DNA of 64,000 bases. It comes from Thermococcus sp. JdFR-02 (GTDB taxonomy: Archaea; Methanobacteriota_B; Thermococci; Thermococcales; Thermococcaceae). Below the pieces are notes generated by a model. That model was not told where the DNA came from. It did no database searches and worked only from the letters and a program-made list of their open reading frames with translations. Of this stretch, positions 1-12,777 are shown in pieces. The DNA is taken from assembly GCA_002009975.1 (NCBI GenBank), contig MTLP01000012.1, positions 32,001 to 96,000 on the forward strand, read 5' to 3'. Numbering within the stretch: position 1 is the stretch's first letter; every line of letters begins with the position of its first letter. The position numbers and the translations under genes are program-made.

Positions 1-1
1 T

Positions 2-508
2 GAAGTTTTAAACAAAGGTGGTTTGGGTGATGTTATTGCTCAAATTCATGGAGGGATAGAGATCAGAGTAAAACCCGGCGCACCCGGGATTGGAGTTGTT
101 GATAATATCTTTTCTGAAAATTATAGAGTTTTAACAGTTCCCTTTGGAAGATTAAGCACAAGGAAAGTTCTGGATAGTGATGTTGTAAAGCTAATTGAGA
201 TTGAAGGGAAAAAAGCATTGGAAAAGCTTCTGGAAAAGCCAAACATTGAAAACCTAATGAAGTTAGCAAGAAGTTTTGCAGAGAGAACTGGACTTTTGAG
301 TGGAGATCTCCTAGAGATTGCAAGAGAGCTCGACAAAAGTTTAAAGCTTCCAGCTTCTATGATTATGCTTGGCAAAAGCCTCTTTGCATTTTTGAAAGAT
401 GAGGAGGTAGAAATGGTTCAGAAAACACTAGAAGAGCTTTCAATTCAAAACTATCAAATTTGTGGAATTTGGGAGGAAAAACCAAAAGTTGAAAGATGGA
501 TTGGATAA
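2..508 (+). CDS. Pantoate kinase (GHMP kinase family), 5'-truncated by the window edge
   Basis: Frame is open from base 2. EVLNKGGLGDVIAQ..GGIEIRVKPGAPG and ASMIMLGKSLF are typical of the archaeal pantoate kinase C-terminal half. Confidence 0.8.
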   Translation, partial: EVLNKGGLGDVIAQIHGGIEIRVKPGAPGIGVVDNIFSENYRVLTVPFGRLSTRKVLDSDVVKLIEIEGKKALEKLLEKPNIENLMKLARSFAERTGLLSGDLLEIARELDKSLKLPASMIMLGKSLFAFLKDEEVEMVQKTLEELSIQNYQICGIWEEKPKVERWIG

Positions 509-550
509 TTGTCTATAAGATAAAGATTAATAGAAAAAGTTTATATCACA

Positions 551-578
551 TAACGTTTAAACACAAATTGGAACGTTA
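551..578. promoter_or_regulatory. Inverted repeat, candidate operator of the ArsR-DUF211-ArsR operon
   Basis: TAACGTT (551-557) and AACGTTA (572-578) lie just downstream of the TATA-like TTTATA (540-545) and upstream of the RBS GGTGAG. Confidence 0.4.
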
Positions 579-594
579 AAATTAGGTGAGGGAA

Positions 595-1173
595 ATGACC
601 AAAAAAGTTAGGGTGATTACAGATCCCAAGGTTATAAAACTTATGCTTGAAGACACGAGGAGACAGATACTTCAACTTTTAAGAAATAAGGAGATGACAA
701 TCTCCCAACTTTCCGAAATCCTTGGAAAAACGCCACAAACAATCTACCATCACATTGAAAAGCTCAAAGAAGCTGGACTTGTTGAGGTAAAGAGAACAGA
801 GATGAAGGGGAATTTAGTTGAAAAATACTATGGGAGAACTGCAGACGCCTTTTATATTAACATGTATCTTGGAGATGAAGAGTTAAGATACTTTGCGAGA
901 TCAAGGTTAAAGACAAAGTTGGATATATTTAAAGCTCTTGGATACTCTTTCAACGATGAGGAGCTTTTGGACATAATGGACAAACTTCTCGCAAAGGAGC
1001 ACGAGTATAAAATGGAGATTTCGAAGGAGATAGAAGCAAAGGAAGAATTACTAAAGGACTTCTCAAATGAGGACATAATCCATGCAATAGAATGGTTCTC
1101 AATGGCAAAGTTGGGAAGAGATGACGAAGCTTTAGAGTTATTGAAAAAACTGGGAGAAATACTTAAAAAGTAG
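595..1173 (+). CDS. ArsR-family winged-helix transcription regulator
   Basis: TRRQILQLL..EMTISQLSEILGKTPQTIYHHIEKLKEAGLV HTH. RBS GGTGAG precedes ATG 595 (ORF track start 586). Confidence 0.85.
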   Translation: MTKKVRVITDPKVIKLMLEDTRRQILQLLRNKEMTISQLSEILGKTPQTIYHHIEKLKEAGLVEVKRTEMKGNLVEKYYGRTADAFYINMYLGDEELRYFARSRLKTKLDIFKALGYSFNDEELLDIMDKLLAKEHEYKMEISKEIEAKEELLKDFSNEDIIHAIEWFSMAKLGRDDEALELLKKLGEILKK

Positions 1174-1201
1174 GTTTCCTATGGGCTAAGGGGAAGTAAA
1201 G

Positions 1202-1507
1202 ATGGCAAAAGGTATTAGGTTGTTAGTGTTGGATGTCCTTAAGCCTCATCAACCTATGGTAACCGAACTTGCTTTAGGTTTGAGCGAGTTGAAAGGTGTA
1301 GATGGAGTTAACATAACTTTAGTTGAGATTGATAAAGAGACTGAGAACGTAAAAATAACGATTGTCGGAGATAACTTGGACTATGAGGAAATTGTGAGAA
1401 CGATTGAAGAGTTTGGTGGGGTAGTGCACAGCATAGACATGGTAGCCGCTGGAAAGAAGATCATTGAAGAAAGTGAGACCCCGCAAGACAAATTAGAAGA
1501 GTTTTAG
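1202..1507 (+). CDS. DUF211 family protein
   Basis: IRLLVLDVLKPHQP...GGVVHSIDMVAAG signature. Confidence 0.8.
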   Translation: MAKGIRLLVLDVLKPHQPMVTELALGLSELKGVDGVNITLVEIDKETENVKITIVGDNLDYEEIVRTIEEFGGVVHSIDMVAAGKKIIEESETPQDKLEEF

Positions 1508-1516
1508 TGAGCGATT

Positions 1517-2074
1517 ATGAAAGAGGTTATAATAGTAACAGATCCCAAAAAAGTTAGGGCACTTGCTGATCCTACCCGTTTTAAAATTTTAGAACTTTTA
1601 AGAATGCATCCGATGAGCATAAACGAACTTAGTCAGCTCTTAAATAAAGATAGATCCACAGTTTACAGACATGTGAAAACTTTAGAAAACTCTGGCTTCA
1701 TAGAAGAAATTGCCCAAGAGGGGAATGAAAAGATATATGGAAGAAAAGCGAGAATATTTTTACTTAAGTTTGAAGCTGATGAGACACTAAAAGAATTCAA
1801 GCAGAGATACATGAAAGTTGAAGCCAAAAGGATTTATGAGATCCTTACAAACTCTAAAATAAATGTAAAAGACAAAGAAACCTTCCTGAGGCTTGTTGAA
1901 GAGATTCTGAGAGATATAGAAGAATTCTCAAGACCAATCTTTAAGAAGATTTCAGAGTCAAACGTTGACATTAAAGAAGTTGAACTTTTGCACCTGCTTA
2001 ATCTACTTGTTCTTCTAAATTCTAATGAGCTGTGTGAAAAAGCCAAAGAATTAAGAGAAATCCTAGAATTCTAG
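1517..2074 (+). CDS. ArsR-family transcription regulator, paralog of 595..1173
   Basis: ALADPTRFKILELL..PMSINELSQLLNKDRSTVYRHVKTLE HTH; shares the TDPK and YGR.A motifs with the upstream paralog. Confidence 0.85.
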   Translation: MKEVIIVTDPKKVRALADPTRFKILELLRMHPMSINELSQLLNKDRSTVYRHVKTLENSGFIEEIAQEGNEKIYGRKARIFLLKFEADETLKEFKQRYMKVEAKRIYEILTNSKINVKDKETFLRLVEEILRDIEEFSRPIFKKISESNVDIKEVELLHLLNLLVLLNSNELCEKAKELREILEF

Positions 2075-3505
2075 GACATGCTTAACGACATATGGTATCT
2101 TTTTTGCAACTTCCAAAGCTGTGAAATTTTCTCCCTTCTCTTCTTTAACCATATCGCCAGCGAGTCCATTTAAGAAAGCACCAACACTTGCGGCTCTTAA
2201 GGGACTGTTTCCTAAGGCTAAGAGAGAAACAATTACTCCAGCTAAAACATCACCAGTTCCCCCTGTGGTCATTCCTCTGTTGCCCGTTTTGTTGTACTTC
2301 CACTCTTCTCCATCGCTTATTATATCATAAGCTCCTTTGAGCAAGATTGTGCCGTTGATTTCTCTCGCCTTCTTGGTGACGAGCTTTGCTTTTTCCTCCA
2401 AGCTCCCCTCAGGCTTTTCACCAAAAAGTATTTTAAATTCCCCAGCATGTGGAGTCAAAACAAAAGTTTTACCCCTTAAAACGCTCAAGTCCTCAGCTAC
2501 GGCTTTTAATCCGTCAGCATCAATGACCATTGGCTTCTTGCAGTGCTTAACGAATTCTCTTACAAATTCTTTGGTCTCCCCACTCAATCCAATTCCCATT
2601 CCAATTGCTACGGCATCAGCCTTTTCTGCTAAAGCCAAGACTTCCTCTAGGAGCTCTTTTGAGAAGTTCTTACCCCTAACGGGTCTCAAAATTAAGTCTG
2701 GGTCGTTTATTCTCCTCGCACTTTCTTCAGGCATTGCTAGATAAACAAGATCAACTAAATAGGAAGCAGCTTTTGAAGCTAAATAAGGTGCCCCAAAGTA
2801 GTTCTCGCTTCCTCCGATTATCAAAACTTTGCCATTTTGACCCTTATGCTCTCCCTTTTTCCTTAAAGCAAACTTTGCATCCCCCGGACCGACTAAGTAA
2901 TAGAGCTCCTTTGGATAGCCAATCTTTGCTATTATCCTTTCAAAACCTTCGTATTCCTCTTTGTCCCATTGGAAAGTTACTGCAAAATCGCAATTTACCC
3001 TAACGCTCGAGGGATAGCCGCTCGGCAGATCAACACTAACTATCTTAGCTTTTCCGGCATATTCATTGATTTTCTTAACAGCGCTCCTTATTGGCTCTCT
3101 CGGCTCTCCCTTAGTTCCCGCGCCGAGTAAAGCATCAACTATAACATCAAAACCTTTCAAATCCAGAGCTTTTATTTGACTTGAGTCTTTAAGAACTTTA
3201 ATCTTTACAAAATCGAGCTTCTTGAGAATTTCCCAGTTATGCTTTGCCTCCTCACTTCTGATTTTCACCTCATCGCCGACTAAAAAGAGGGTCACATCGT
3301 TTTCAAAGCTCAAGTGCCTCGCTATTACAAAGCCGTCTCCGCCGTTGTTGCCTGTTCCGCAGAAAATCACCACTTTTAAGTTTTTTCCAAACTTCTCCTC
3401 AATTATCCTCGCCACACCCGCACCGGCATTTTCCATCAATTGAAAAGGTGAAATACTAAGCCACTTAGCGTTTATATCCCAAATGTAAACATCCTCAATT
3501 TTCAT
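2063..3505 (-). CDS. nnr: Bifunctional NAD(P)HX epimerase/dehydratase
   Basis: YjeF_N motifs LMENAG, GNNGGDG and VDLPSG, plus kinase-like HKGQNG, LTPHAGEF and GGTGDVLAG. RBS GGTGGTG precedes ATG 3505. Confidence 0.92.
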   Translation of the reverse strand: MKIEDVYIWDINAKWLSISPFQLMENAGAGVARIIEEKFGKNLKVVIFCGTGNNGGDGFVIARHLSFENDVTLFLVGDEVKIRSEEAKHNWEILKKLDFVKIKVLKDSSQIKALDLKGFDVIVDALLGAGTKGEPREPIRSAVKKINEYAGKAKIVSVDLPSGYPSSVRVNCDFAVTFQWDKEEYEGFERIIAKIGYPKELYYLVGPGDAKFALRKKGEHKGQNGKVLIIGGSENYFGAPYLASKAASYLVDLVYLAMPEESARRINDPDLILRPVRGKNFSKELLEEVLALAEKADAVAIGMGIGLSGETKEFVREFVKHCKKPMVIDADGLKAVAEDLSVLRGKTFVLTPHAGEFKILFGEKPEGSLEEKAKLVTKKAREINGTILLKGAYDIISDGEEWKYNKTGNRGMTTGGTGDVLAGVIVSLLALGNSPLRAASVGAFLNGLAGDMVKEEKGENFTALEVAKKIPYVVKHVLEF

Positions 3506-3562
3506 GAACACCACCGTTAAAAATTTAAAAAAGAAAAGGTTAAAAGATTTAGCCAATGGAAC

Positions 3563-3865
3563 TTAAAGAACAATTCTCTTAAATGATCTGTAGTCCAAAA
3601 ACTTCCCAATAAGTATGAACGCAGAACCCAAGAGAATCATCAGACCAAGCAGGCATAAATTCTTTCGCTTTTTGGAATTATAATTTCGAAAAGTTGCTAC
3701 TGCTGTTAGAAAGCTCAACATTGCTCCAATTCGAAAGTATGCGAATTATATAGTTATTTCGTCTCTGTAGAGAAAGTACACCGCCCTAAATAATGTAGCT
3801 CCTAGACAATAACCCAAGTTCTCCTTTCCTATAATCGAGGCTATTACTATTCCAAAGAAGGTGTT
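3563..3865 (-). pseudogene. Decayed small multi-TM membrane protein gene
   Basis: Hand translation: NTFFGIVIASIIGKENLGYCLGATLFRAVYFLYRDEITI*FAYFRIGAMLSFLTAVATFRNYNSKKRKNLCLLGLMILLGSAFILIGKFLDYRSFKRIVL*. One internal TAA (3746-3748); RBS GGTGA at 3873-3877 has no in-frame start codon after it. Confidence 0.5.
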
Positions 3866-4039
3866 TTAAATATCACCACTTTTTGTCTTTCAGGTCCTTA
3901 GAAAGACCGAGTTCAAGGCAAAGTTATCAACAGTCCCGTCAATATAATATAGTTGAGAACTTTTAAGTTAATGATAAAGTTAGCTAGTCCAAATTACAAG
4001 AAGGAAGAGAAAGTATAGGAAGGCCTTTTTCATGTTTCA

Positions 4040-4939
4040 TCACCTAATTAAAGTTAGATTTTGGAAGATTAAAGTATAATTCATGTTTTCCGAAATTATG
4101 GAAAATCTAACGGGTAGTAAGTCTTCTTTCCTTATGAGAAGCATAATAGTAGAGTTGCTTTCAATTGTAGATAATCTATAAAAATCATGATATTCCTCAA
4201 GAGTCAAGTTTACATTCTTGAAATATGAGAAAATGTTTTGGAGATTAATGTCTTCTATGTGCTCACATGACATGATGTTCGTATGGATATCTTTTTTGTC
4301 ACTATTACTCCCATTGTATAGGATAACTGATGTTCCATTACAAGTCAAAATTTCTCCAGAGGGGATATCCTGAATTTTAAAAAGATTTGGCTTCTTAAAA
4401 AGATATAGATAAACACTAGACTCAGTATTGTTTAGAATGGATGTTGTTTCATGTATTATGGCCTTATATCCCTGAGCTTTTTCAAATTTTACAGTCATTT
4501 GAGTAAGGAGTGTTTTGGAGTTTAAACTTGTTTCATGGATAGATATAACTACTACAATAGCCAGCAAAATAACCCCCATAGCATATATTGCAAGAATCTT
4601 TTTAGGCATCTTGATATGCTTAGAGGATGCGTAATAAAGAAACATTACTCCGTTAAAAATTAAAAGCTTTAAAGAGATATCCTTTAGAGGAAAGCCCAAA
4701 TAGTAGTTACGGGTTAACAAGAGAAAAGAGACTAAAATCAGATATAAAGAAAAATTTTCAGGCTTTTGTTTGATCTCACTAAGGGAATTAAAAAACAGAT
4801 GAAGTAACAATAACGCCGTGATTATTCCAAGAGTTAATGAAAACATGAGGTTGAACTTTTCGATTTTCCTAAAATAAGCGTCAATGGAAAAGAGCAAAAA
4901 ACCAAGAATAACCAGAAAACCTCTAACTTCTTTTTTCAT
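4040..4939 (-). CDS. Membrane protein (about 4-5 TM) with C-terminal LolA-like extracellular domain
   Basis: Hydrophobic N-terminal ~135 aa, then YLYLFKKPNLFKIQDIPSGEILTCNGTSVILYN...MLLIRKEDLLPVRFSII..YTLIFQNL, reminiscent of the LolA/DUF2092 fold. Many N-x-S/T sequons. Confidence 0.65.
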   Translation of the reverse strand: MKKEVRGFLVILGFLLFSIDAYFRKIEKFNLMFSLTLGIITALLLLHLFFNSLSEIKQKPENFSLYLILVSFLLLTRNYYLGFPLKDISLKLLIFNGVMFLYYASSKHIKMPKKILAIYAMGVILLAIVVVISIHETSLNSKTLLTQMTVKFEKAQGYKAIIHETTSILNNTESSVYLYLFKKPNLFKIQDIPSGEILTCNGTSVILYNGSNSDKKDIHTNIMSCEHIEDINLQNIFSYFKNVNLTLEEYHDFYRLSTIESNSTIMLLIRKEDLLPVRFSIISENMNYTLIFQNLTLIR

Positions 4940-5129
4940 TTAACCATCTCCTAAACCATACTCGCGGAGGGATTGTTAGGATAGTGATAACAAGTGTTAT
5001 AACAAAAACCATGTAAGCTGGGACATTTAATCTCCCAGATTTCCATAAGTTACCCACTACAATAAAAATAATAAAATAAAGAGGTATTGAACGCCCAATT
5101 TCTTGTTTAACAATTATATCCATACCCAT
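4923..5129 (-). CDS. 68-aa two-TM protein, candidate immunity protein
   Basis: RBS GGAGGT lies between the upstream stop and the ATG. Two hydrophobic helices and a basic tail; overlaps the next gene by 17 bp. Confidence 0.6.
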   Translation of the reverse strand: MGMDIIVKQEIGRSIPLYFIIFIVVGNLWKSGRLNVPAYMVFVITLVITILTIPPRVWFRRWLNEKRS

Positions 5130-5136
5130 ACCTCCA

Positions 5137-5826
5137 TTAAGAGAAATAACACTGCCCCATACAGTATCCTAAATCAGCCCCTAGACATATTGCACACGCT
5201 AAACATCCAACTCCAGTTGCAATACAAGTGGGACAGATATACACTAAGCAATCTAAACAATATCCTGTTGTACATTCCTGAAGCATACACCCTACAACAC
5301 ATTCCCAAAAGCCATCATCACTAGTTACATGAATTTGGCCATTTTCGGCAGTTGCTATTAACTCAATGTTTCCATTCTTATCAAGAGAATAGAACTCTAT
5401 TTTGCCAACACTATCCCCAGATAATGTCATCGTATACTTAACGGGCTTAATTTTGTTTGAAAGATAAACTACTACTGAAGACACTCTTACTCCTTCTTTG
5501 CTTTTCTCATATCCTATGGGAAATACTGCAAATGTTGCACTCTTTCCAGAAGAGGTTGAAATTTTGTAAACTTTTGCATTTTTTATTAACAGCGAAGGAA
5601 GCAAATTTGTATTTGCAATTAGTTTTTTAAGTTCATGTGAGTTAACTGCACTAGAGAGAAGCACATACTTTTGAATTCCAGTGATTTCTTCTAACCTCAG
5701 CTTTTCTTTAGTATATACACAGGTTTTTGGTTTTGCAATTTGCTGTTCTGCTAGTACTGGAGCTGCAATCATCCCCAAAATCAAGACTAAAACAAATAAC
5801 GAACCTAACATCATTTTTCGATTCAT
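5137..5826 (-). CDS. Secreted precursor with Cys-rich C-terminal peptide (halocin C8-like archaeocin precursor)
   Basis: Signal peptide MNRKMMLGSLFVLVLILGMIAAPVLA, Lys-rich pro-domain, then C-terminal 61 aa with 12 Cys. RBS GAGTGA precedes ATG 5826 (ORF track start 5862). Confidence 0.75.
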   Translation of the reverse strand: MNRKMMLGSLFVLVLILGMIAAPVLAEQQIAKPKTCVYTKEKLRLEEITGIQKYVLLSSAVNSHELKKLIANTNLLPSLLIKNAKVYKISTSSGKSATFAVFPIGYEKSKEGVRVSSVVVYLSNKIKPVKYTMTLSGDSVGKIEFYSLDKNGNIELIATAENGQIHVTSDDGFWECVVGCMLQECTTGYCLDCLVYICPTCIATGVGCLACAICLGADLGYCMGQCYFS

Positions 5827-6285
5827 AGGTAGGTCACTCGATAAACAATAAACAAAAAACAAATAAATATTTTTCGTAAACCAAAAGTTAAAGAAATCAA
5901 TAAGAGTTTGAGTAAATTTTTAATTCAAAGCAATTATTTTTATGTCTTTGAAATACTCAACATCACAATCGATTAAATAACATGTGTTACTGCCCTTAAT
6001 TTGACTTTTATTAGTGCTATTTTTAATTATAATCAATATCAAAAAGCTTGATATTACCTTACCACCCGTATTTTACTGTGATGAAAAGAAGGGGAAAATC
6101 TTAGTCCTGCTTTTTATTTTTGTTATTCTCGTCATAAGCCTTGATTTTAATGATAAAAACCACCAATTCATGTTGGAACTCGAAAAACAGACTCCTCAAA
6201 AATTTGTGCGTTCAACCAAAGTCACCCTTAAAAGAAGCTAAAAGAATTCATATCAAACAATACAATCTTCACAAACCCTCACCTC

Positions 6286-6396
6286 TTAGAGCAATTTCCA
6301 AGTTCTCAATGCAATGATGATAAATAACAGCATTGAAATTAATAGGAAAAGATACGAGTATGCTGTGCTCACCTTGGGAAATAAAATATAGCAGTT
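6286..6396 (-). pseudogene. C-terminal fragment of a membrane protein gene
   Basis: Hand translation NCYILFPKVSTAYSYLFLLISMLLFIIIALRTWKLL*, bounded upstream by an in-frame TAG. It is followed by RBS GAGGTGAGG and a GTG that stops after 11 codons. Confidence 0.35.
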
Positions 6397-6672
6397 CTAT
6401 TGTCTTTAAGAGGAGGATGCTGGATAGACATTAAAATTTACAAAGATGGGGAATCACTTGTGAATTATGAACAGTTCTATGTGCTGTTTCAGATAAGCTC
6501 TACCTGCATGAGCATAGAATCCAAAGATGTGAAGTTTTTGGATGAAAATAAAACACCTTTAGTTTACTATGCATTGTTCTTAACCCAAGAACATCTCAGA
6601 GTTAAACATTTTCGGTAGCACTTCTGGACAAGTGTGTAATTTAATAAACTTTTTTACTCCCTCAATCAACAA

Positions 6673-7245
6673 TTACTCTAAAACTTTCAAAGCCCTCTCA
6701 TAATCCGCCCTTGAATAAAGCACAAGATAAACTTCTTTAACACTCTCAGCTTCCCTTGAAAACTCTTCCACAACTTCAATAAAAGTTTTAACAACCTCTT
6801 CCAGTGGACATCCATAGATGCCGGCACTTATGGCTGGAAATGCAATTGAAGAAATGTTTAGCTCTTCAGCTTTTCTTAATGGCCCGATTAACGCTTTTCT
6901 AAGCTTCTCCTTTAAGCTCCCATTCCATTTTCCACCACAATAAGGCCCAACCGTGTGGATAACGTATTTTATTCCAGAGCGCTCCATGTTTAAAGCGGGT
7001 GTAACAACGACTTCACCGTGCTCAATGTAATTTCTCCCAATCTGCTCTCTCATAGCCTCTTTGCTGATTTTGATGTATTCGTAAGGGTCTCCAGCTGCAG
7101 CTTTAGCAATGGCTAAAGCTACTCCTCCACCGTGCTCCAAATATTTGTTTGCCGCATTAACTATCGCCTCCGCTGGAAACCTAGTTATGTCTCCTTGGGC
7201 GAGCTTAAAAGTTAAATTTCTAAAGGTAAGTTCTTTTAAAATCAT
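6673..7245 (-). CDS. Macrodomain protein (ADP-ribose-binding/hydrolase, AF1521-like)
   Basis: GDIT, AIVNAAN..L.HGGGVALAI, VIHTVGP and FPAISAGIYG. RBS GAGGTGAG precedes ATG 7245. Confidence 0.9.
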   Translation of the reverse strand: MILKELTFRNLTFKLAQGDITRFPAEAIVNAANKYLEHGGGVALAIAKAAAGDPYEYIKISKEAMREQIGRNYIEHGEVVVTPALNMERSGIKYVIHTVGPYCGGKWNGSLKEKLRKALIGPLRKAEELNISSIAFPAISAGIYGCPLEEVVKTFIEVVEEFSREAESVKEVYLVLYSRADYERALKVLE

Positions 7246-7249
7246 ACTC

Positions 7250-8530
7250 TCACCTCGACAACAAATCTTCTGCAACCTCTTGAGCTTTATCCAAAACCCG
7301 CTCCTCATCAAAGCTCAAAACTTCTCTATCAAGCATCAAAATCTTCCCATCGACTATTGTGGTCTCGACATCGCTTCCATTTGCAGAATAAACGATGTGG
7401 CTTATAACATTGTGAATCGGTCTTAGGTGAGGTTTGTTGAAGTCAATTATAATCAAATCTGCTAAAGCACCTTCTCTTATTACTCCAGCATTCAGCTTTA
7501 GTGCTTTTGCCCCATTTTGAGTTGCCATCTTAAAAACAGTTGAAGCATCGGCTATTGTTGGATCAAGGATGTGCACTTTGTGTAAGAGTGCCGCTAGTTT
7601 CATCTCTTCAAGCATGTCCAAGTTGTTGTTGCTTGCAGTTCCATCAGTTGCTAAAGAAACGTTCGCCCCTTCTTTTAAAAGCTCCCTAAGGGGCATTACT
7701 CCACTCGCAAGCTTCATGTTCGAGGCTGGATTGTGTGCTATTGTTGCACCACTTTTTGCAATGATTTCAATATCCCTTTCGTTCAACCAGACGCCATGTG
7801 CAATAATAACATCATCTTTCAAAAACCCAATCTCATCTAAAAGCTCAACTGGACTTTTTCCATATTGGGCTTTTATGTTCTCCACTTCAGTTTTAGTTTC
7901 ACTAACGTGGATTGTTATCATTTTCTTGTACTTATCTGCTAACTCTCTAACCCTTTTCAAAAACTCTGGAGAGCAAGTGTACGGAGCGTGAGGTCCAAAG
8001 AGGAAGTTAATCCTCTCCAAACCAAGCTTTTCGACAAATTCCATAACTCTAAAGGCTTCCATAATCTCTTTTTCCCCTTTTTCTTTATCTCCGAGTTCGA
8101 TCATCCCGTGACTTAGATAAGCCCTTAAGCCACTCTCTTTTACTGCTTTAGCAGTTTCATCCATGAAGAAGTACATGTCAACAAAAGTTGTTGTTCCAGT
8201 CTTTATCATTTCTAAAGCACCTAAAAGAGAACCCCAATAAACATCACTTGCTTTGAGTTTTGCTTCTCTTGGCCAAATATGCTTTTGAAGCCATTCCATA
8301 AGTTCCAAATCATCTGCAACGCCCCTAAAAAGTGTCATGGCTAAATGGGTGTGTGTATTTATAAAACCAGGAGAAACTATTTTTCCGTTAGCATCAATAA
8401 CAACATCAGCACTCTCCTTCAAACCTTTTCCAATTTTTGTTATTTTGTTTTCTTCAATAAAAAGGTCGGCTTTTATAATTTCCAGATTTTCGCCATAGAT
8501 GAGGGTTCCGTTTTTTATTAAGATGCTCAT
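7250..8530 (-). CDS. mtaD: 5'-methylthioadenosine/S-adenosylhomocysteine deaminase (amidohydrolase)
   Basis: PGFINTHTH, PHAPYTCS, IHVSET, HNPASNMKLASG and TDG.ASNN.LD motifs. Confidence 0.82.
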   Translation of the reverse strand: MSILIKNGTLIYGENLEIIKADLFIEENKITKIGKGLKESADVVIDANGKIVSPGFINTHTHLAMTLFRGVADDLELMEWLQKHIWPREAKLKASDVYWGSLLGALEMIKTGTTTFVDMYFFMDETAKAVKESGLRAYLSHGMIELGDKEKGEKEIMEAFRVMEFVEKLGLERINFLFGPHAPYTCSPEFLKRVRELADKYKKMITIHVSETKTEVENIKAQYGKSPVELLDEIGFLKDDVIIAHGVWLNERDIEIIAKSGATIAHNPASNMKLASGVMPLRELLKEGANVSLATDGTASNNNLDMLEEMKLAALLHKVHILDPTIADASTVFKMATQNGAKALKLNAGVIREGALADLIIIDFNKPHLRPIHNVISHIVYSANGSDVETTIVDGKILMLDREVLSFDEERVLDKAQEVAEDLLSR

Positions 8531-8585
8531 CTTTCACCACCAAAGCTAATAAGTTTTTAAGCCTAAATAAAGTTTAGGTGATACT

Positions 8586-9308
8586 ATGGAGAAGCCCATT
8601 ACATTGAACTTGCCAAAAATTGAAAACCCAATCTTTATAGAGGGCTATCCAGGAATTGGACTTGTTGGACATATAGCAGCTAATTTTCTTGCAAAAGAAC
8701 TCAAAATGGAAATGATAGGGCACATTGAGAGCTCATTCATTCCACCAATAACCTTAATTTTAGAAGGAAAACCAAATCCCCCAATAAGATTTTACGCAAA
8801 GGATAACGTGATAATAGCCATCGCCGACATTTATATAACCCCAACGCTTGTAAATGAGATAGCTAAGGAAGTCGTTAGCTATCTAAAGGAAACCAACGCT
8901 CAAAAAGTAATCTCAATGGGCGGCATGGGCATTGGATTTTTCAAAGAAAAAATGGAAGTTTATGGAGTTGGAGGAAGCGAAGAGGAAAATAAAGAGCTGG
9001 AGGATATTGGGGTAAAGATACTCAAATTCGGCTCAATAATGGGGATGAGCGGTAGGCTACTTTGGGAAGCCTCAAAGGAAAAACTAAAGAGCTACGTCCT
9101 CTTGGGCGAAACTTTTGGAGATAGACCAGATCCAAGGGCAGCTGCAAATGTAATAGAGTACCTCAAAAAGCTCATTCCATTAGAGGTTTCAACCGAACCA
9201 CTAATCAAAGAAGCGGAAATGATTGAAGAACAATTAAGGAGAATGCATGAACAGATGGAAATTGCAAGAAGAAAAGCCGAGAAAGAATACGAGAGCGTTT
9301 ATGTATGA
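8586..9308 (+). CDS. Proteasome assembly chaperone (PAC2) family protein
   Basis: IEGYPGIGLVGHIAA and PDPRAAA motifs. Confidence 0.85.
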   Translation: MEKPITLNLPKIENPIFIEGYPGIGLVGHIAANFLAKELKMEMIGHIESSFIPPITLILEGKPNPPIRFYAKDNVIIAIADIYITPTLVNEIAKEVVSYLKETNAQKVISMGGMGIGFFKEKMEVYGVGGSEEENKELEDIGVKILKFGSIMGMSGRLLWEASKEKLKSYVLLGETFGDRPDPRAAANVIEYLKKLIPLEVSTEPLIKEAEMIEEQLRRMHEQMEIARRKAEKEYESVYV

Positions 9309-9318
9309 GGTGATGCTA

Positions 9319-9705
9319 ATGCTTGAAGAAATTTTAGTTTTAACCGGAATATCAAGGAGAACCTTGGATTCTTTACTTAAAAGCCCATACAAAACAATTG
9401 AAATTAGAAACGCTAGAAATGTTCTCGCCTTAAGCAGAATTAAAGCTGGAGAAAAGATATTCCTAACTTATGAAACCTTCCATGATATTGTAAAAGGAAC
9501 TGAAGGCATAGTTGCTGAAATTTTAAGAGTTGAGAGCATGGAGCAGAGGGTTTTATGGGAAGAAAGTGATGAAAGGGAGCAGATGATTTGCAGAGTTCAG
9601 TTAAAACTTTTGGGTCTTGGAAAAGTTTTGGAAATCGTTGAAAGAAATAGTGCAATAAGGGTAAAGATCAGAGAGATGCTCCCACATGAGATGAGGATGG
9701 GTTAA
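9319..9705 (+). CDS. DUF473 family protein
   Basis: LTGIS...KTIEIRNARN...GTEGIVA. RBS GAGGTGA precedes ATG 9319. Confidence 0.7.
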   Translation: MLEEILVLTGISRRTLDSLLKSPYKTIEIRNARNVLALSRIKAGEKIFLTYETFHDIVKGTEGIVAEILRVESMEQRVLWEESDEREQMICRVQLKLLGLGKVLEIVERNSAIRVKIREMLPHEMRMG

Positions 9706-9737
9706 AATATTTAAGAGTTTCCGTTTTGGACTGAGAA

Positions 9738-10493
9738 TTAGAAAATATCAAGTGTCTTTTGCTTCCCTCTTTTGATTTTCCCTCGTTTAGGAGGTTTTAG
9801 TTTCCTAAATTCAAGCCCTTCTTTTTCTAAAAGCTTTCTTGCACCTTCTGTCAGAGATGGAGCAACCAAAATGCCCCTGACTTTCCCATATTCTTCTTTT
9901 AAGGCATCAACATAACGTTTCAACTGGCTTACCGCGTGTAGATCTGCCCTTCTGCGCTTTAACTCCAAAACAACAATGTTGCCTTCTTTATCCTTACCCA
10001 AAACATCAACTATACCATGTTTTATGGGTTTTTCCTTGGATAGTGGCTTAAAACCTTCTTCAATAAGTTCTGGATTCTCAAAAATTAGGTCTGCCATTTC
10101 TTTTTCGCTTCCTGTTAGGGCTAATTCTTCATAATCCTCTGCTGAGAAATAGCTTGCGAGGTAAACATTAATTAGCTCAACTTCTAAAATCTCCCTCGGC
10201 TTTTTCCTTACGCTTTTTAGAATAATATTTTCATCTTTTACTTCAAAGCTGGCAATACTTCCAGGCGGTTGCCAATTCACAGGTTCTCTTTTGTTCTTTT
10301 GATGGATTAAAAAAGAGCCATCTGGTTTGATCATAATAACCCGATCCCCAGGACCGAGTTCACTCTTAGCCCTTCCATCATAAGATACCTTGCATAGGGC
10401 AAAAATGGTGAGTATAGCTTCATTTCTAAGCCCTTCACTAACCAGTTCAATTAATTCATCTTTCGTTGGATTAACTTTAGATTTAACTTTCAT
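9738..10493 (-). CDS. nucS: Mismatch-specific endonuclease NucS/EndoMS
   Basis: YDGRAKS.L..GDR...IKPDGS.LIH, PVNWQP, D...ELK...QL.RY nuclease motif and C-terminal PIP box QKTLDIF. Confidence 0.95.
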   Translation of the reverse strand: MKVKSKVNPTKDELIELVSEGLRNEAILTIFALCKVSYDGRAKSELGPGDRVIMIKPDGSFLIHQKNKREPVNWQPPGSIASFEVKDENIILKSVRKKPREILEVELINVYLASYFSAEDYEELALTGSEKEMADLIFENPELIEEGFKPLSKEKPIKHGIVDVLGKDKEGNIVVLELKRRRADLHAVSQLKRYVDALKEEYGKVRGILVAPSLTEGARKLLEKEGLEFRKLKPPKRGKIKRGKQKTLDIF

Positions 10494-10568
10494 CTCCTTT
10501 TCCCAACCATGGGTTTGGAACTTAACATCTTATAAAGTTTTCAAACTTAATTCTCTCGGGGGATGTGA

Positions 10569-10982
10569 ATGCATGAATGGGCGTTAGCTGATGCTATAGT
10601 TAGGACAGCTTTAAATGTTGCTCAGGAAAATGAAGCAAATAAAGTTCTTGAAATTAGAGTTGTTTTAGGCGAATTGCAGGATGTTGATACGGAATTGATT
10701 GAATTTGCAGTTAAAGAGCTTATAAAAGGGACAATAGCAGAAAATGCAAAGATAACCTTCATTGAAGAAGAAGCACTTTTCAAATGCAGGAACTGTAGTT
10801 TTGAGTGGAAATTAAAAGACATCAAGGAAAGCTTAGATGAAAGAATTAAAGAGGATATTCACTTCATTCCAGAGGTTGCTCACGCATTCATGAAATGCCC
10901 AAAATGTAAAAGCCCAGATTTTGATGTAGTTAAAGGAAGAGGCGTTTATATAGAGGGAATAAAAGTGGCAAAGGAGGAGTAG
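10569..10982 (+). CDS. hypA: Hydrogenase nickel incorporation protein HypA
   Basis: MHE start, two CxxC motifs, GRGVYIE. Confidence 0.93.
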   Translation: MHEWALADAIVRTALNVAQENEANKVLEIRVVLGELQDVDTELIEFAVKELIKGTIAENAKITFIEEEALFKCRNCSFEWKLKDIKESLDERIKEDIHFIPEVAHAFMKCPKCKSPDFDVVKGRGVYIEGIKVAKEE

Positions 10983-10984
10983 CG

Positions 10985-11710
10985 ATGCTCGATCCAAGAA
11001 TTAACGTCATAGATGAGCGTTTGAAAGGTATTAAGAGAGTAATCCCGGTAGTGAGTGGAAAAGGAGGCGTTGGAAAATCGATAGTCTCTACAACCCTTGC
11101 TCTAATTTTAGCTAAAAAAGGATTTAAAGTTGGGCTTTTGGACTTAGACTTTCATGGAGCAAGTGATCATGTAATCTTAGGGGTCAAAGATATATTTCCA
11201 GAAGAGGAGAAAGGTGTTATACCCCCTGAGATTTATGGGATTAAATTCATGAGCATAGCATTTTATTCAGAAGATAAACCAACCCCATTAAGGGGAAAAG
11301 AAATTACAGATGCGTTACTTGAACTTTTAGCAATAACAAGATGGGAAGACCTAGATTTCCTAGTCATTGATATGCCCCCAGGATTAGGAGAACAGTTCCT
11401 TGATCTTTTAAGGTTCATAAAGAGAGGAGAATTTCTGATTGTTGCTACACCTTCAAAACTGGCAATAAATGTTGTTAAAAAAGTGGTGGAACTTTTGAAA
11501 GAACTAAACCTCAAAACATTAGGGATAGTGGAGAACATGAAGCTAGACGATGAAAAAGAAATCAAAGAACTTGCAGAAGAATTTGAGATACCTTATTTGG
11601 TAGATATTCCTCTGTACAGAGATTTGGATGAAAAGATTGGGAATATTGAAGCGTTACTAAGTTCAGAGTTTGCAGAAAAAATTGAAAAAGTTGCAGAAAA
11701 GATTCTTTAA
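10985..11710 (+). CDS. Mrp/NBP35-family ATPase, the ATPase-type HypB partner of Thermococcales HypA
   Basis: [20 protein letters not shown] and GIVENM; begins 2 bp after hypA. Confidence 0.85.
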
Positions 11711-12777
11711 TCTTCTATTCCTTTTTCAGTAATTTTGAATGCTGCCTCTCCTTCAGGCAGGTGAGGCGAATCCACTAATCTTGCGATTCTCTTTCCACCT
11801 TTTCCTTTTCTTAGATAAAGCCTAACTGTTGCTGAGTGAGCCAATATATGACCACCAATTGGTCTCGTTGGATCTCCAAAGAAAGCATCAGGTCTTGCTT
11901 GAACTTGGTTTGTAACAAAAATTGCAACATCATGTAAGTTAGCTAGGCGGTGCAAATCAGATAAATGTTTCCCAAGCTTTTGTTGTCTCTCTGCTAATGC
12001 TCCTCTCCCAATATATTCAGCTCTGAAGTGAGAGGTTAGAGAATCCACGACAACTAGCTTAATATTGTTGTTCTTTATGAGTTCTTCAGCTTTTTCTACT
12101 AGAAGCATTTGGTGGTTTGAATTGTAAGCCCTTGCAACATATATGTTCTTCAGGACTTCCTCAGGATCCAAACCCCTATTTTCTGCAATTTGCCTAATTC
12201 TCTCTGGTCTAAATGTGTTCTCGGTGTCGATATAAATAGCACCTGCTTCTAATCCACCTTCATCTCTCCCAAGTTGAACGGTCACACAAAGGGTGTGAGC
12301 TATTTGGGTCTTTCCACTTCCAAACTCACCGAAAACTTCTGTAATTGCTTGGGTTTCAACTCCTCCACCTAAAAGCTTATCCAAAGCCTTGCTTCCAGTA
12401 GTAATTTTCCCAATTATTTGTCTTCTCTGTAAATATTCATCCGCCCTTATGAAGGTGCCAATATTTGCAGCCTCTCTTGCTGCCTGGATTATCTTTAATG
12501 CCGCACCCTCACTTATTCCAGCTATTTCTTTAAGCTCAAGCGGAGATGCAACAGCTATTGCTTCTAACGTATCAAAACCAGCTTCTCTAAGTTTTTCAGC
12601 TGTTGCTGGACCTACCCCCGGTAAGTCCTCAAGTGTGCTTACCTCTTTTTTCTTCTTTTTCTTGACAGATTCAACAACACTTTCTACAATAGTTTCTTCA
12701 AGTTCATTTTCAACAGGCAATTCTTCAAACTCATCCAATTCTTTAATTTCCTCTGCAGATTTCTTTTTTCTCGCCAT
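11707..12777 (-). CDS. radA: DNA repair and recombination protein RadA, no intein
   Basis: HhH LPGVG, Walker [20 protein letters not shown] and PIGGHILAH. Confidence 0.97.

Follow-up and report, generated by a model that had tools for sequence, protein, structure and literature searches.

The halocins H4, C8 and S8 are the families described in molecular detail, and a different system, the homologues of subtilosin A, is highlighted in Thermococcus, in the part of the source available to us (10.64898/2026.07.27.741052). According to the same part, the C8 precursor of Natrinema, ProC8, is a protein of 283 residues that is exported by twin-arginine translocation (Tat) and cut into an immunity protein at the N-terminus, HalI, and a halocin of 76 residues, and ABC (ATP-binding cassette) transporter genes lie downstream of its gene (10.64898/2026.07.27.741052). 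The present analysis concerns an islet of three genes, A, B and C (Table 1), in a stretch of 64,000 nucleotides from Thermococcus sp. JdFR-02 (contig MTLP01000012.1, positions 32,001 to 96,000; hereafter the window). With moderate confidence, the islet is read as an archaeocin-like toxin-immunity cassette with predicted activity, wherein A would be a carrier, or pro-domain, joined to a C-terminal warhead, and B and C would form a membrane immunity unit. Within the Thermococcaceae, the cassette belongs to a modular system of which it is one combination: each type of warhead travels with its own small membrane proteins, and on each of at least two unrelated pro-domains sits either a DGFW-type warhead or a halocin C8-type domain.

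The architecture of A matches the halocin C8 layout of a signal, a long pro-region and a cysteine-rich hydrophobic C-terminus, the last within the range of 60-76 residues. The Thermococcus proteins with a halocin C8 domain, and ProC8 as described in the part of the source cited above, are likewise secreted, with an N-terminal region of about 150-200 residues ahead of a Cys-rich hydrophobic C-terminal peptide of 60-76 residues. The signal of A ends in VLA followed by E and has no twin-arginine motif, so it is of the general secretory (Sec) type, whereas a Tat signal is given for ProC8; cleavage would occur after VLA26. The most likely start of A is the ATG at 5826 (MNRK..., 229 residues), because the database form has 229 residues and a relative of 80% identity begins with MNRK. 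Twelve of the 13 cysteines of A fall in the last 60 residues, which contain no lysine or arginine and six acidic residues and have a grand average of hydropathy (GRAVY) of +0.95. The signal peptide and this clustering of cysteines agree with the secreted, Cys-rich precursor announced in the initial annotation. An AlphaFold2 (AF2) model of A from a 51-sequence alignment, with a predicted local distance difference test (pLDDT) of 81 and a predicted template-modelling score (pTM) of 0.75, contains an alpha/beta domain followed by three helices. In the signal region, it has a helix at residues 6-18 and then a low-confidence linker. A Foldseek search of the PDB with A gave no match at E <= 0.001.

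Judged by the two domains that define the halocin C8 family, A falls outside it. Neither TIGR04449 (halocin_C8_dom of NCBIfam, curated cut-off 24 bits) nor PF22862 (Hac8_like_N) matched A at E <= 1 or anything in its own genome at E <= 10, and both matched the Haloferax volcanii control. Across the phylum, TIGR04449 matches 7 of 133 genomes, all of one Thermococcus genus and six of them above the cut-off. The warhead of A has no detectable homology to the halocin C8 domain; what links A to the family is therefore its pro-domain, together with interchangeability, and not the toxic part. The pro-domain of A is homologous to that of halocin C8-domain proteins of Thermococcus. The family of window-type pro-domains (A10, nine sequences carrying several different warheads) aligned in hhalign with a family of three Thermococcus proteins of about 261 residues that have a halocin C8-type C-terminus (A11), with a probability of 96.9% and E 1.7e-10 over 149 columns, values somewhat inflated by the signal peptide within the alignment. 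Pairwise BLASTP between the two pro-domains gave E 5e-6. Against TIGR04449, the A11 proteins score 44.2 bits (above the cut-off), 23.3, or 24.1 with neighbours (borderline), and 22.6 (below).

Interchangeability is seen on a second pro-domain. The warhead of A shares 28-41% identity with precursor C-termini from four other genomes (G055, G064, G061 and G059; G denotes genomes and L loci throughout), which have an unrelated pro-domain (probability 0.25% between the two families). On this second pro-domain, the window's warhead type takes the place of the halocin C8 domain: a protein of 304 residues in G055 carries it (36% identity to residues 180-240 of A), and one of 316 residues in G017 ends in a halocin C8 domain (45.3 bits). 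These two proteins are 71% identical overall and near-identical up to "...MDG", beyond which identity collapses. Two unrelated pro-domains are thus crossed with two unrelated warhead types in nature. Such crossing of carrier and warhead follows the logic of polymorphic toxins, which makes the warhead of A a functional alternative to the halocin C8 domain.

The concept of polymorphic toxin systems with cognate immunity genes was reportedly set out by Zhang et al. in 2012 and Makarova et al. in 2019. Like those systems, the cassette combines a conserved N-terminal part with swappable C-terminal domains at a sharp junction, has an adjacent downstream immunity-like gene that tracks the toxin domain rather than the N-terminal part, and is accompanied elsewhere by orphan immunity genes and C-terminal fragments. 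It differs in that the warheads are small, putatively disulfide-rich hydrophobic peptides and not enzymes, no RHS/YD repeats or dedicated secretion apparatus are seen, and the putative immunity proteins are integral to the membrane.

The coupling of B and C to the warhead is a further line of evidence. A profile of B matches 15 of the 97 Thermococcaceae genomes searched. All six full-length precursors of the DGFW type (G000, G055, G064, G061, G059 and G048, counting G059, whose precursor is cut at the N-terminus by the end of its contig) have B directly 3' and then a C-like gene with multiple transmembrane helices, and this order holds across both unrelated pro-domains. B was found in none of ten halocin C8-type loci, which have other small transmembrane proteins. 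Among the 15 genomes, G026 gives only a weak match of 21 residues. The most likely start of B is the second ATG, at 5123 (MD...), because M-D is invariant in all six aligned B homologues and a GGAGGT then lies 6 nt upstream. B shares 32-43% identity with five homologues; M-D, E, R, F, P, L and P-R-W-R are invariant among them.

C consists of a transmembrane part and a C-terminal domain with a predicted LolA-like fold. The transmembrane part shares 26-39% identity with the product of the third gene in related cassettes. Full-length similarity is restricted to a stop-interrupted gene in G035 (38% identity, two TAA codons), and a search of 5.8 billion proteins recovered only C itself. In the ESM Atlas model, residues 140-299 matched clusters of the LolA family in 10 of 10 structural rows, at template-modelling (TM) scores of 0.69-0.85 and a whole-protein pLDDT of 0.65, and Atlas feature matches name LolA, UCP033729 and MucB_RseB. 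The AF2 model of the same residues, at a pLDDT of 30-50, has one helix and about 11 strands. Among hidden Markov models (HMMs) of the LolA clan, neither LolA, LolA_2, MucB_RseB nor UCP033729 of Pfam matched at E <= 1, and NCBIfam likewise gave no match. Of the membrane-anchored LolA-like protein named in the initial annotation, the anchor is modelled as five helices, and the resemblance to LolA is seen in predicted structure only, with no LolA HMM match. Compared with described LolA, LolB and RseB domains (PF03548, PF16584 and PF27667), the domain of C is fused to a five-helix membrane protein, and its host is an archaeon without an outer membrane or a Lol pathway.

A separate observation touches on this domain. 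In G018, G074 and G072, the last gene of the halocin C8-type locus encodes a secreted protein of 169-175 residues (L054:2213-2722, L055:2529-3056 and L056:508-1017). The nearest named Atlas clusters of the 169-residue protein in L054 are LolA/UCP033729, at a score of 0.89 that serves as a lead only, an echo of the LolA-like domain of C; BLASTP between the two gave E 19.

B and C are also found without a precursor. They occur alone in G035 (with C interrupted by stops), G049, G060, G065 and G067, and in degraded form in G078 and G083. In G038 (L095:1291-1461), they stand behind a remnant of 56 residues in which a signal peptide is fused to about the last 24 residues of a warhead. In a divergent metagenome relative (run X5, window 5176-5654), one contig lacks 477 nt of A and has 3 nt inserted there, and other contigs of the run carry B and C. 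The internal deletions of the precursor in G038 and run X5 are independent; both bring the signal peptide up to the end of the warhead, with B and C preserved. Retention of the partners where the precursor is lost is behaviour as of immunity genes. The loci of G083 and G078 (L097:528-1512 and L098:684-1668) are degraded relatives of the window's own type of cassette. They have a truncated A-like open reading frame (ORF) of 90 residues that is 55% identical to residues 15-48 of A, a truncated B of 57 residues close to that of the window, and, between the two, a gene for a protein of 173 residues with five transmembrane helices.

The wider family of A shows the same association of C-terminal domain and downstream gene. 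As a single query, A matches 9 of the 97 family genomes, its own included, and among 5.8 billion proteins it found three, namely itself, one of 80% identity and one of 46%. A profile built from the first matches reached 61 proteins, of which all that have a named source are annotated as "hypothetical protein" and come from Thermococcus, Pyrococcus or Palaeococcus; no Pfam domain was found in these 61. The 51-sequence profile matches 60 of the 97 genomes (51 of the 79 of high quality), in all six genera, and many of these genomic matches are interrupted by stops. In 27 loci of the commonest subgroup, a gene for a small membrane protein starts no more than 160 bp 3' of the precursor (-55 to +125 bp where listed), and its product has at least one predicted transmembrane helix, and two to four in most loci. 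Across the 351 pairs of these loci, the pro-domains share 67% identity on average, the last 80 residues 39% and the downstream proteins 27%. Identity of the downstream proteins exceeds background only in the 19 pairs whose C-terminal domains are at least 60% identical (53% against 26%); because the pairs are kin and not independent, this is claimed as a pattern and carries no P-value. These identities and the six precursors followed by B and C show divergent, coupled pairs, in agreement with the expectation in the initial annotation that pairs of peptide and immunity genes would be divergent.

Two further features of the family stand beside these figures. At some loci, orphan Cys-rich C-terminal fragments are followed by more small membrane genes (L037:2810-2974, plus strand; L047:565-735, minus strand), and these orphan ORFs look like spare warhead-immunity cassettes downstream of the main precursor. 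The commonest subgroup (loci L018-L047, for example L020, L022, L038, L043 and L046) often adjoins a conserved cupin-like gene (MKAEIKNLIDRGTYRKLPLFEGELPE...) and a gene resembling Asp/Glu racemases. In many Thermococcaceae, this neighbourhood thus makes up a hypervariable spot whose chromosomal site is fixed.

The distribution of cysteines bears on a different explanation, in which A would be a secreted metal- or redox-active protein with a physiological role and B and C its membrane partners. Twelve cysteines within 60 residues would suit such a protein. At greater distance, the family profile reaches 92 representative clusters (E <= 0.001; P0064-P0150), many with a twin-arginine signal and a C-terminal domain of 12-19 cysteines. 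Of the 73 of these relatives that were scanned, two match, and are fused to, a DCC1-like thiol-disulfide oxidoreductase, and several others carry a comparable CxxC region at the N-terminus. None of the 73 matches TIGR04449 at E <= 0.01, and no Pfam family is common to all. Disulfide formation in a toxin would account for the fusion just as well. In the 51-sequence alignment, just four columns are invariant, all of them Cys, and the spacing of the other cysteines varies widely, which is unsuited to a fixed metal site. Such a role also sits badly with an accessory, polymorphic and pseudogene-rich distribution, and it is the least probable of the explanations considered here.

Structure prediction places the toxin-immunity reading beside another that draws on the same data. 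Three chains were modelled together, namely B, the transmembrane part of C and, as the partner, the warhead; the complex scored 0.78 and the best of three controls 0.08. The contacts agree to at least 94% between runs, the partner has a pLDDT of at least 81, and the warhead lies between the helices of both B and C. Of 80 solved complexes, 58 reach the mark for this score, as do 2 of 110 mismatched pairs; these counts are only rough here because own alignments and three chains were used. The model supports binding of the warhead to B and the transmembrane part of C, and the predicted placement would fit immunity by capture in the membrane. It would equally fit a non-toxic complex of the membrane or surface, in which the warhead anchors A between B and C and leaves the N-terminal domain exposed at the cell surface for adhesion or for recognition of self and non-self; the variability would then stem from the specificity of recognition and not from killing. 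The co-variation of the C-terminal domain with downstream membrane proteins and the anchor-like hydrophobicity of the three-helix warhead are compatible with this arrangement, and other hypervariable surface modules of Thermococcales have been proposed to act in recognition, in the part of the account available (PMC8416519). However, the same pro-domains carry halocin C8 domains, and the founder of that family is a released toxin. The frequent retention of B and C without A, or behind an internally deleted A, would be odd for obligate subunits. Furthermore, the anchor-like part is variable and the displayed domain conserved, the reverse of what is expected of a recognition surface. A surface complex is thus considered unlikely.

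Several results weigh against the toxin-immunity reading. Stable subunits of a single membrane complex would account just as well for the complex model and for the co-variation of C-terminal domain and membrane protein, and the pairs behind the co-variation are kin. Neither halocin C8 model matches A, and the alignment of its warhead with halocin C8-type domains of Thermococcus has an hhalign probability of 0.3%; the alignment of the two pro-domain families is inflated as noted above. Fold searches with A peak at a Z score of 5.4 in VIA-align wide, where rows of START/Bet v 1-like proteins at Z 4-5 fall inside the background of the tool, and no fold is assigned. The LolA-like call on C comes from a predicted model of moderate confidence, that of the Atlas, and the AF2 model of the domain has the low pLDDT given above. 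In addition, A is trailed by the membrane proteins B and C, whereas the immunity of ProC8 is assigned to its pro-region in the available part of that description, so the roles given to B and C have no direct precedent in the halocin C8 family as described there. On balance, the competition module proposed in the initial annotation is supported as the somewhat favoured interpretation by the pro-domains shared and warheads swapped with halocin C8 proteins, by the coupling of B and C to the warhead and by the complex model.

If the cassette does encode a toxin and its immunity, A would be made as a pre-pro-protein and exported through Sec, with its signal peptide removed at the site given above. 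The basic pro-domain may carry and shield the acidic, very hydrophobic three-helix warhead, as composition and fold model suggest, and the 12 cysteines could form up to six disulfides. Warheads switch in related genes at a conserved D-D/D-G junction, and cleavage near this junction, by analogy with ProC8, might release the peptide, which would insert into and damage the membrane of competing Thermococcales. B and the transmembrane part of C, whose coupling to the warhead is observed and whose binding of it is modelled, would act in the producer membrane as a unit that binds and neutralizes the warhead. The LolA-like ectodomain of C may capture the hydrophobic peptide, or hand it over, at the outer face of the membrane. 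A bolder proposal, held with rather less than even confidence, is that the DGFWxC domain represents a new class of disulfide-stapled, membrane-active archaeocin of hyperthermophiles that is swappable with halocin C8 domains on two or more unrelated carriers and neutralized by a membrane receptor of B and C, with a LolA-like extracellular trap for the hydrophobic peptide gained in this lineage.

In Gram-positive bacteria, operons for class II (unmodified) bacteriocins consist of a precursor gene followed by a gene for a small membrane immunity protein. The cassette is similar in the translational coupling of its precursor to a small membrane protein, in the orphan immunity genes of non-producers and in a peptide that is probably membrane-active. 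The two differ in that A has a folded pro-domain of 143 residues and not a short leader, no sequence relationship is found, the cassette has no gene for an ABC exporter or a peptidase, and immunity appears to need two proteins.

The islet occupies positions 3557-6672 of the window (about 3.1 kb) as an AT-rich insert between a macrodomain gene and nnr, both on the minus strand, with a G+C content of 28-36% against 39-45% in the flanking genes. The listed ORFs and the Pfam matches of the flanks confirm the three coupled minus-strand genes of the initial annotation, and its 7-bp gap with a ribosome-binding site between A and B (5130-5136, TGGAGGT on the minus strand) and 17-bp overlap of B and C (4923-4939) are true of the ORFs as listed; the starts favoured above differ for A and B. 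A TATA-like element in the upstream spacer may serve as the promoter of A. A scan for bacterial signals gave 15 promoters against 13.3 expected, which is background, and no terminators. No ORF among the six scanned from the islet reaches a Pfam or NCBIfam cut-off, and the 52-residue ORF in the downstream spacer has no family match in either. Chance ORFs and mis-annotation were considered and rejected, as A, B and C all have homologues that keep the same order in other genomes. The flanks were also said to hold gene debris, and this label could not be verified. Searches of both spacers (3557-4039 and 5863-6672) by blastn and tblastx against their own genome and the fetched loci returned self-matches only, and a search of the 97 family genomes with the upstream spacer gave merely AT-rich matches of 20-47 nt, so these sequences may simply be spacers.

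Table 1. Positions in the window of the genes of the islet, their parts and the flanking features.
Feature	Position	Strand	Remarks
Gene A, pre-pro-protein, 229 residues	5137..5826	minus	stop at 5137-5139
Signal peptide of A, Sec type, residues 1-26 (MNRKMMLGSLFVLVLILGMIAAPVLA)	5749..5826	minus	read from sequence
Pro-domain of A, residues 27-169 (143 residues)	5320..5748	minus	predicted alpha/beta fold; basic, 20 K/R vs 12 D/E
Putative warhead of A, residues 170-229 (60 residues), DGFWxC type	5140..5319	minus	12 Cys, three predicted helices
Gene A as listed ORF	5137..5862	minus	longer form started by TTG
Ribosome-binding site GGAGGT in the A-B spacer	5130..5135	minus	6 nt 5' of ATG 5123; directly abuts ATG 5129
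Gene B, protein of about 66 residues with two transmembrane helices, end ...PPRVWFRRW...	4923..5123	minus	ORF as listed from 5129
Gene B as listed ORF	4923..5129	minus	
Gene C, membrane protein, 299 residues	4040..4939	minus	transmembrane part and predicted LolA-like domain; same extent in the ORF list
Transmembrane part of C, residues 1-138	4526-4939	minus	five helices, AF2 pLDDT about 80
Putative extracytoplasmic LolA-like domain of C, residues 140-299	4043-4522	minus	predicted structure
Upstream spacer	5827..6672		AT-rich, 28-34% G+C
TATA-like element AAAATATTTATTT	5861-5873	minus	inside upstream spacer; putative promoter of A
Downstream spacer	3557..4039		contains ORF of 52 residues with one transmembrane helix (3563-3721, minus)
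nnr	2063..3556	minus	YjeF_N and Carb_kinase, E 1e-37 and 7e-52
Macrodomain gene	6673..7311	minus	Pfam Macro, E 2.9e-33

The gene order amidohydrolase-macrodomain-nnr is kept across the family. Twenty-five macrodomain loci were compared (24 from Thermococcaceae and one other), of which 13 have nnr inside the 1.5-kb flank and 12 outside it. Macrodomain and nnr are adjacent in three of these 13 relatives (G002, G090 and G092, with alignments about 13 bp apart), and in the remaining ten the alignments are separated by about 210 to more than 1,300 bp. No content like that of the islet was found by tblastx (E <= 0.01) in 15 intervals, comprising the ten between macrodomain and nnr and five macrodomain flanks with nnr out of view. 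The variation of this interval among relatives, anticipated in the initial annotation, is accordingly present, and the intervals carry other small genes, often one for a protein of 132-148 residues with four transmembrane helices. The insert is accessory, as seen from the adjacent flanks in those three genomes, the low G+C content and the single copy of A in its own genome. In three other metagenome runs, contigs tile the islet and both junctions with zero differences, and a fourth run has a relative that is 80-95% alike; such contigs indicate presence and not expression.

An accessory insert of this kind could also be a defence or exclusion module against viruses or conjugative elements, in which a variable secreted or membrane protein masks or blocks an envelope receptor and diversifies in the course of an arms race with viruses or plasmids of Thermococcales. 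Patchy distribution, hypervariability, frequent pseudogenes and variable spots are typical of defence islands as well. No defence, integrase or viral gene is seen nearby in the islet or in those related loci that were read, the PADLOC library not having been searched. No tRNA was found in positions 1-12000 of the window, and no convincing direct repeats flank the islet. The connection with halocin C8 domains speaks for offence, and a defence module is regarded as very unlikely.

Two observations concern the flanking genes themselves. Elsewhere in the Thermococcaceae, the 3' flank of the macrodomain gene often holds a gene for a protein of 132-148 residues with two to four predicted transmembrane helices and the motif ...FRLAFRF... 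(L065:764-1162, L068:195-593, L070:1224-1649, L072:2407-2805 and L074:1036-1449; in three of these, within the macrodomain-nnr interval), which the window lacks. The listed start of nnr is a TTG at 3556. Relatives align only from about residue 15, and some 50 nt downstream, near 3505, there is an ATG in frame (MKIEDVY...). This is the probable start of nnr, which would make the islet slightly longer.

Searches of the literature found no characterized archaeocin in Thermococcales, in agreement with the initial annotation, which knew of no characterized equivalent. Uncharacterized genes with halocin C8 domains do occur in Thermococcus, and the module is therefore not without relatives. Makarova et al. 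reportedly expanded the halocin C8 family in 2019 and proposed further archaeocin-like families. Literature searches found no description of this Thermococcales family or of its locus tags, though the 2019 work may already list the genes. The cassette would vary the design of halocin C8 by a new warhead, by a signal of the Sec type and by a membrane partner of two proteins, one of them with a LolA-like fusion.

Archaeocins with known precursor genes are few. The cassette is a compact and testable unit of three genes within an order that has genetic tools, and the natural swap experiment of two pro-domains and two warheads, each with its own membrane partners, predicts killer and resistant strains. 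If the toxin-immunity reading is true, it would show how hyperthermophilic archaea compete, and would add new toxic domains and a new kind of immunity to the design known from halocin C8. The peptides would be membrane-active and very heat-stable, near 80-100 C. Ultimately, the cassette would be the first toxin-immunity system of the Thermococcales open to genetics.

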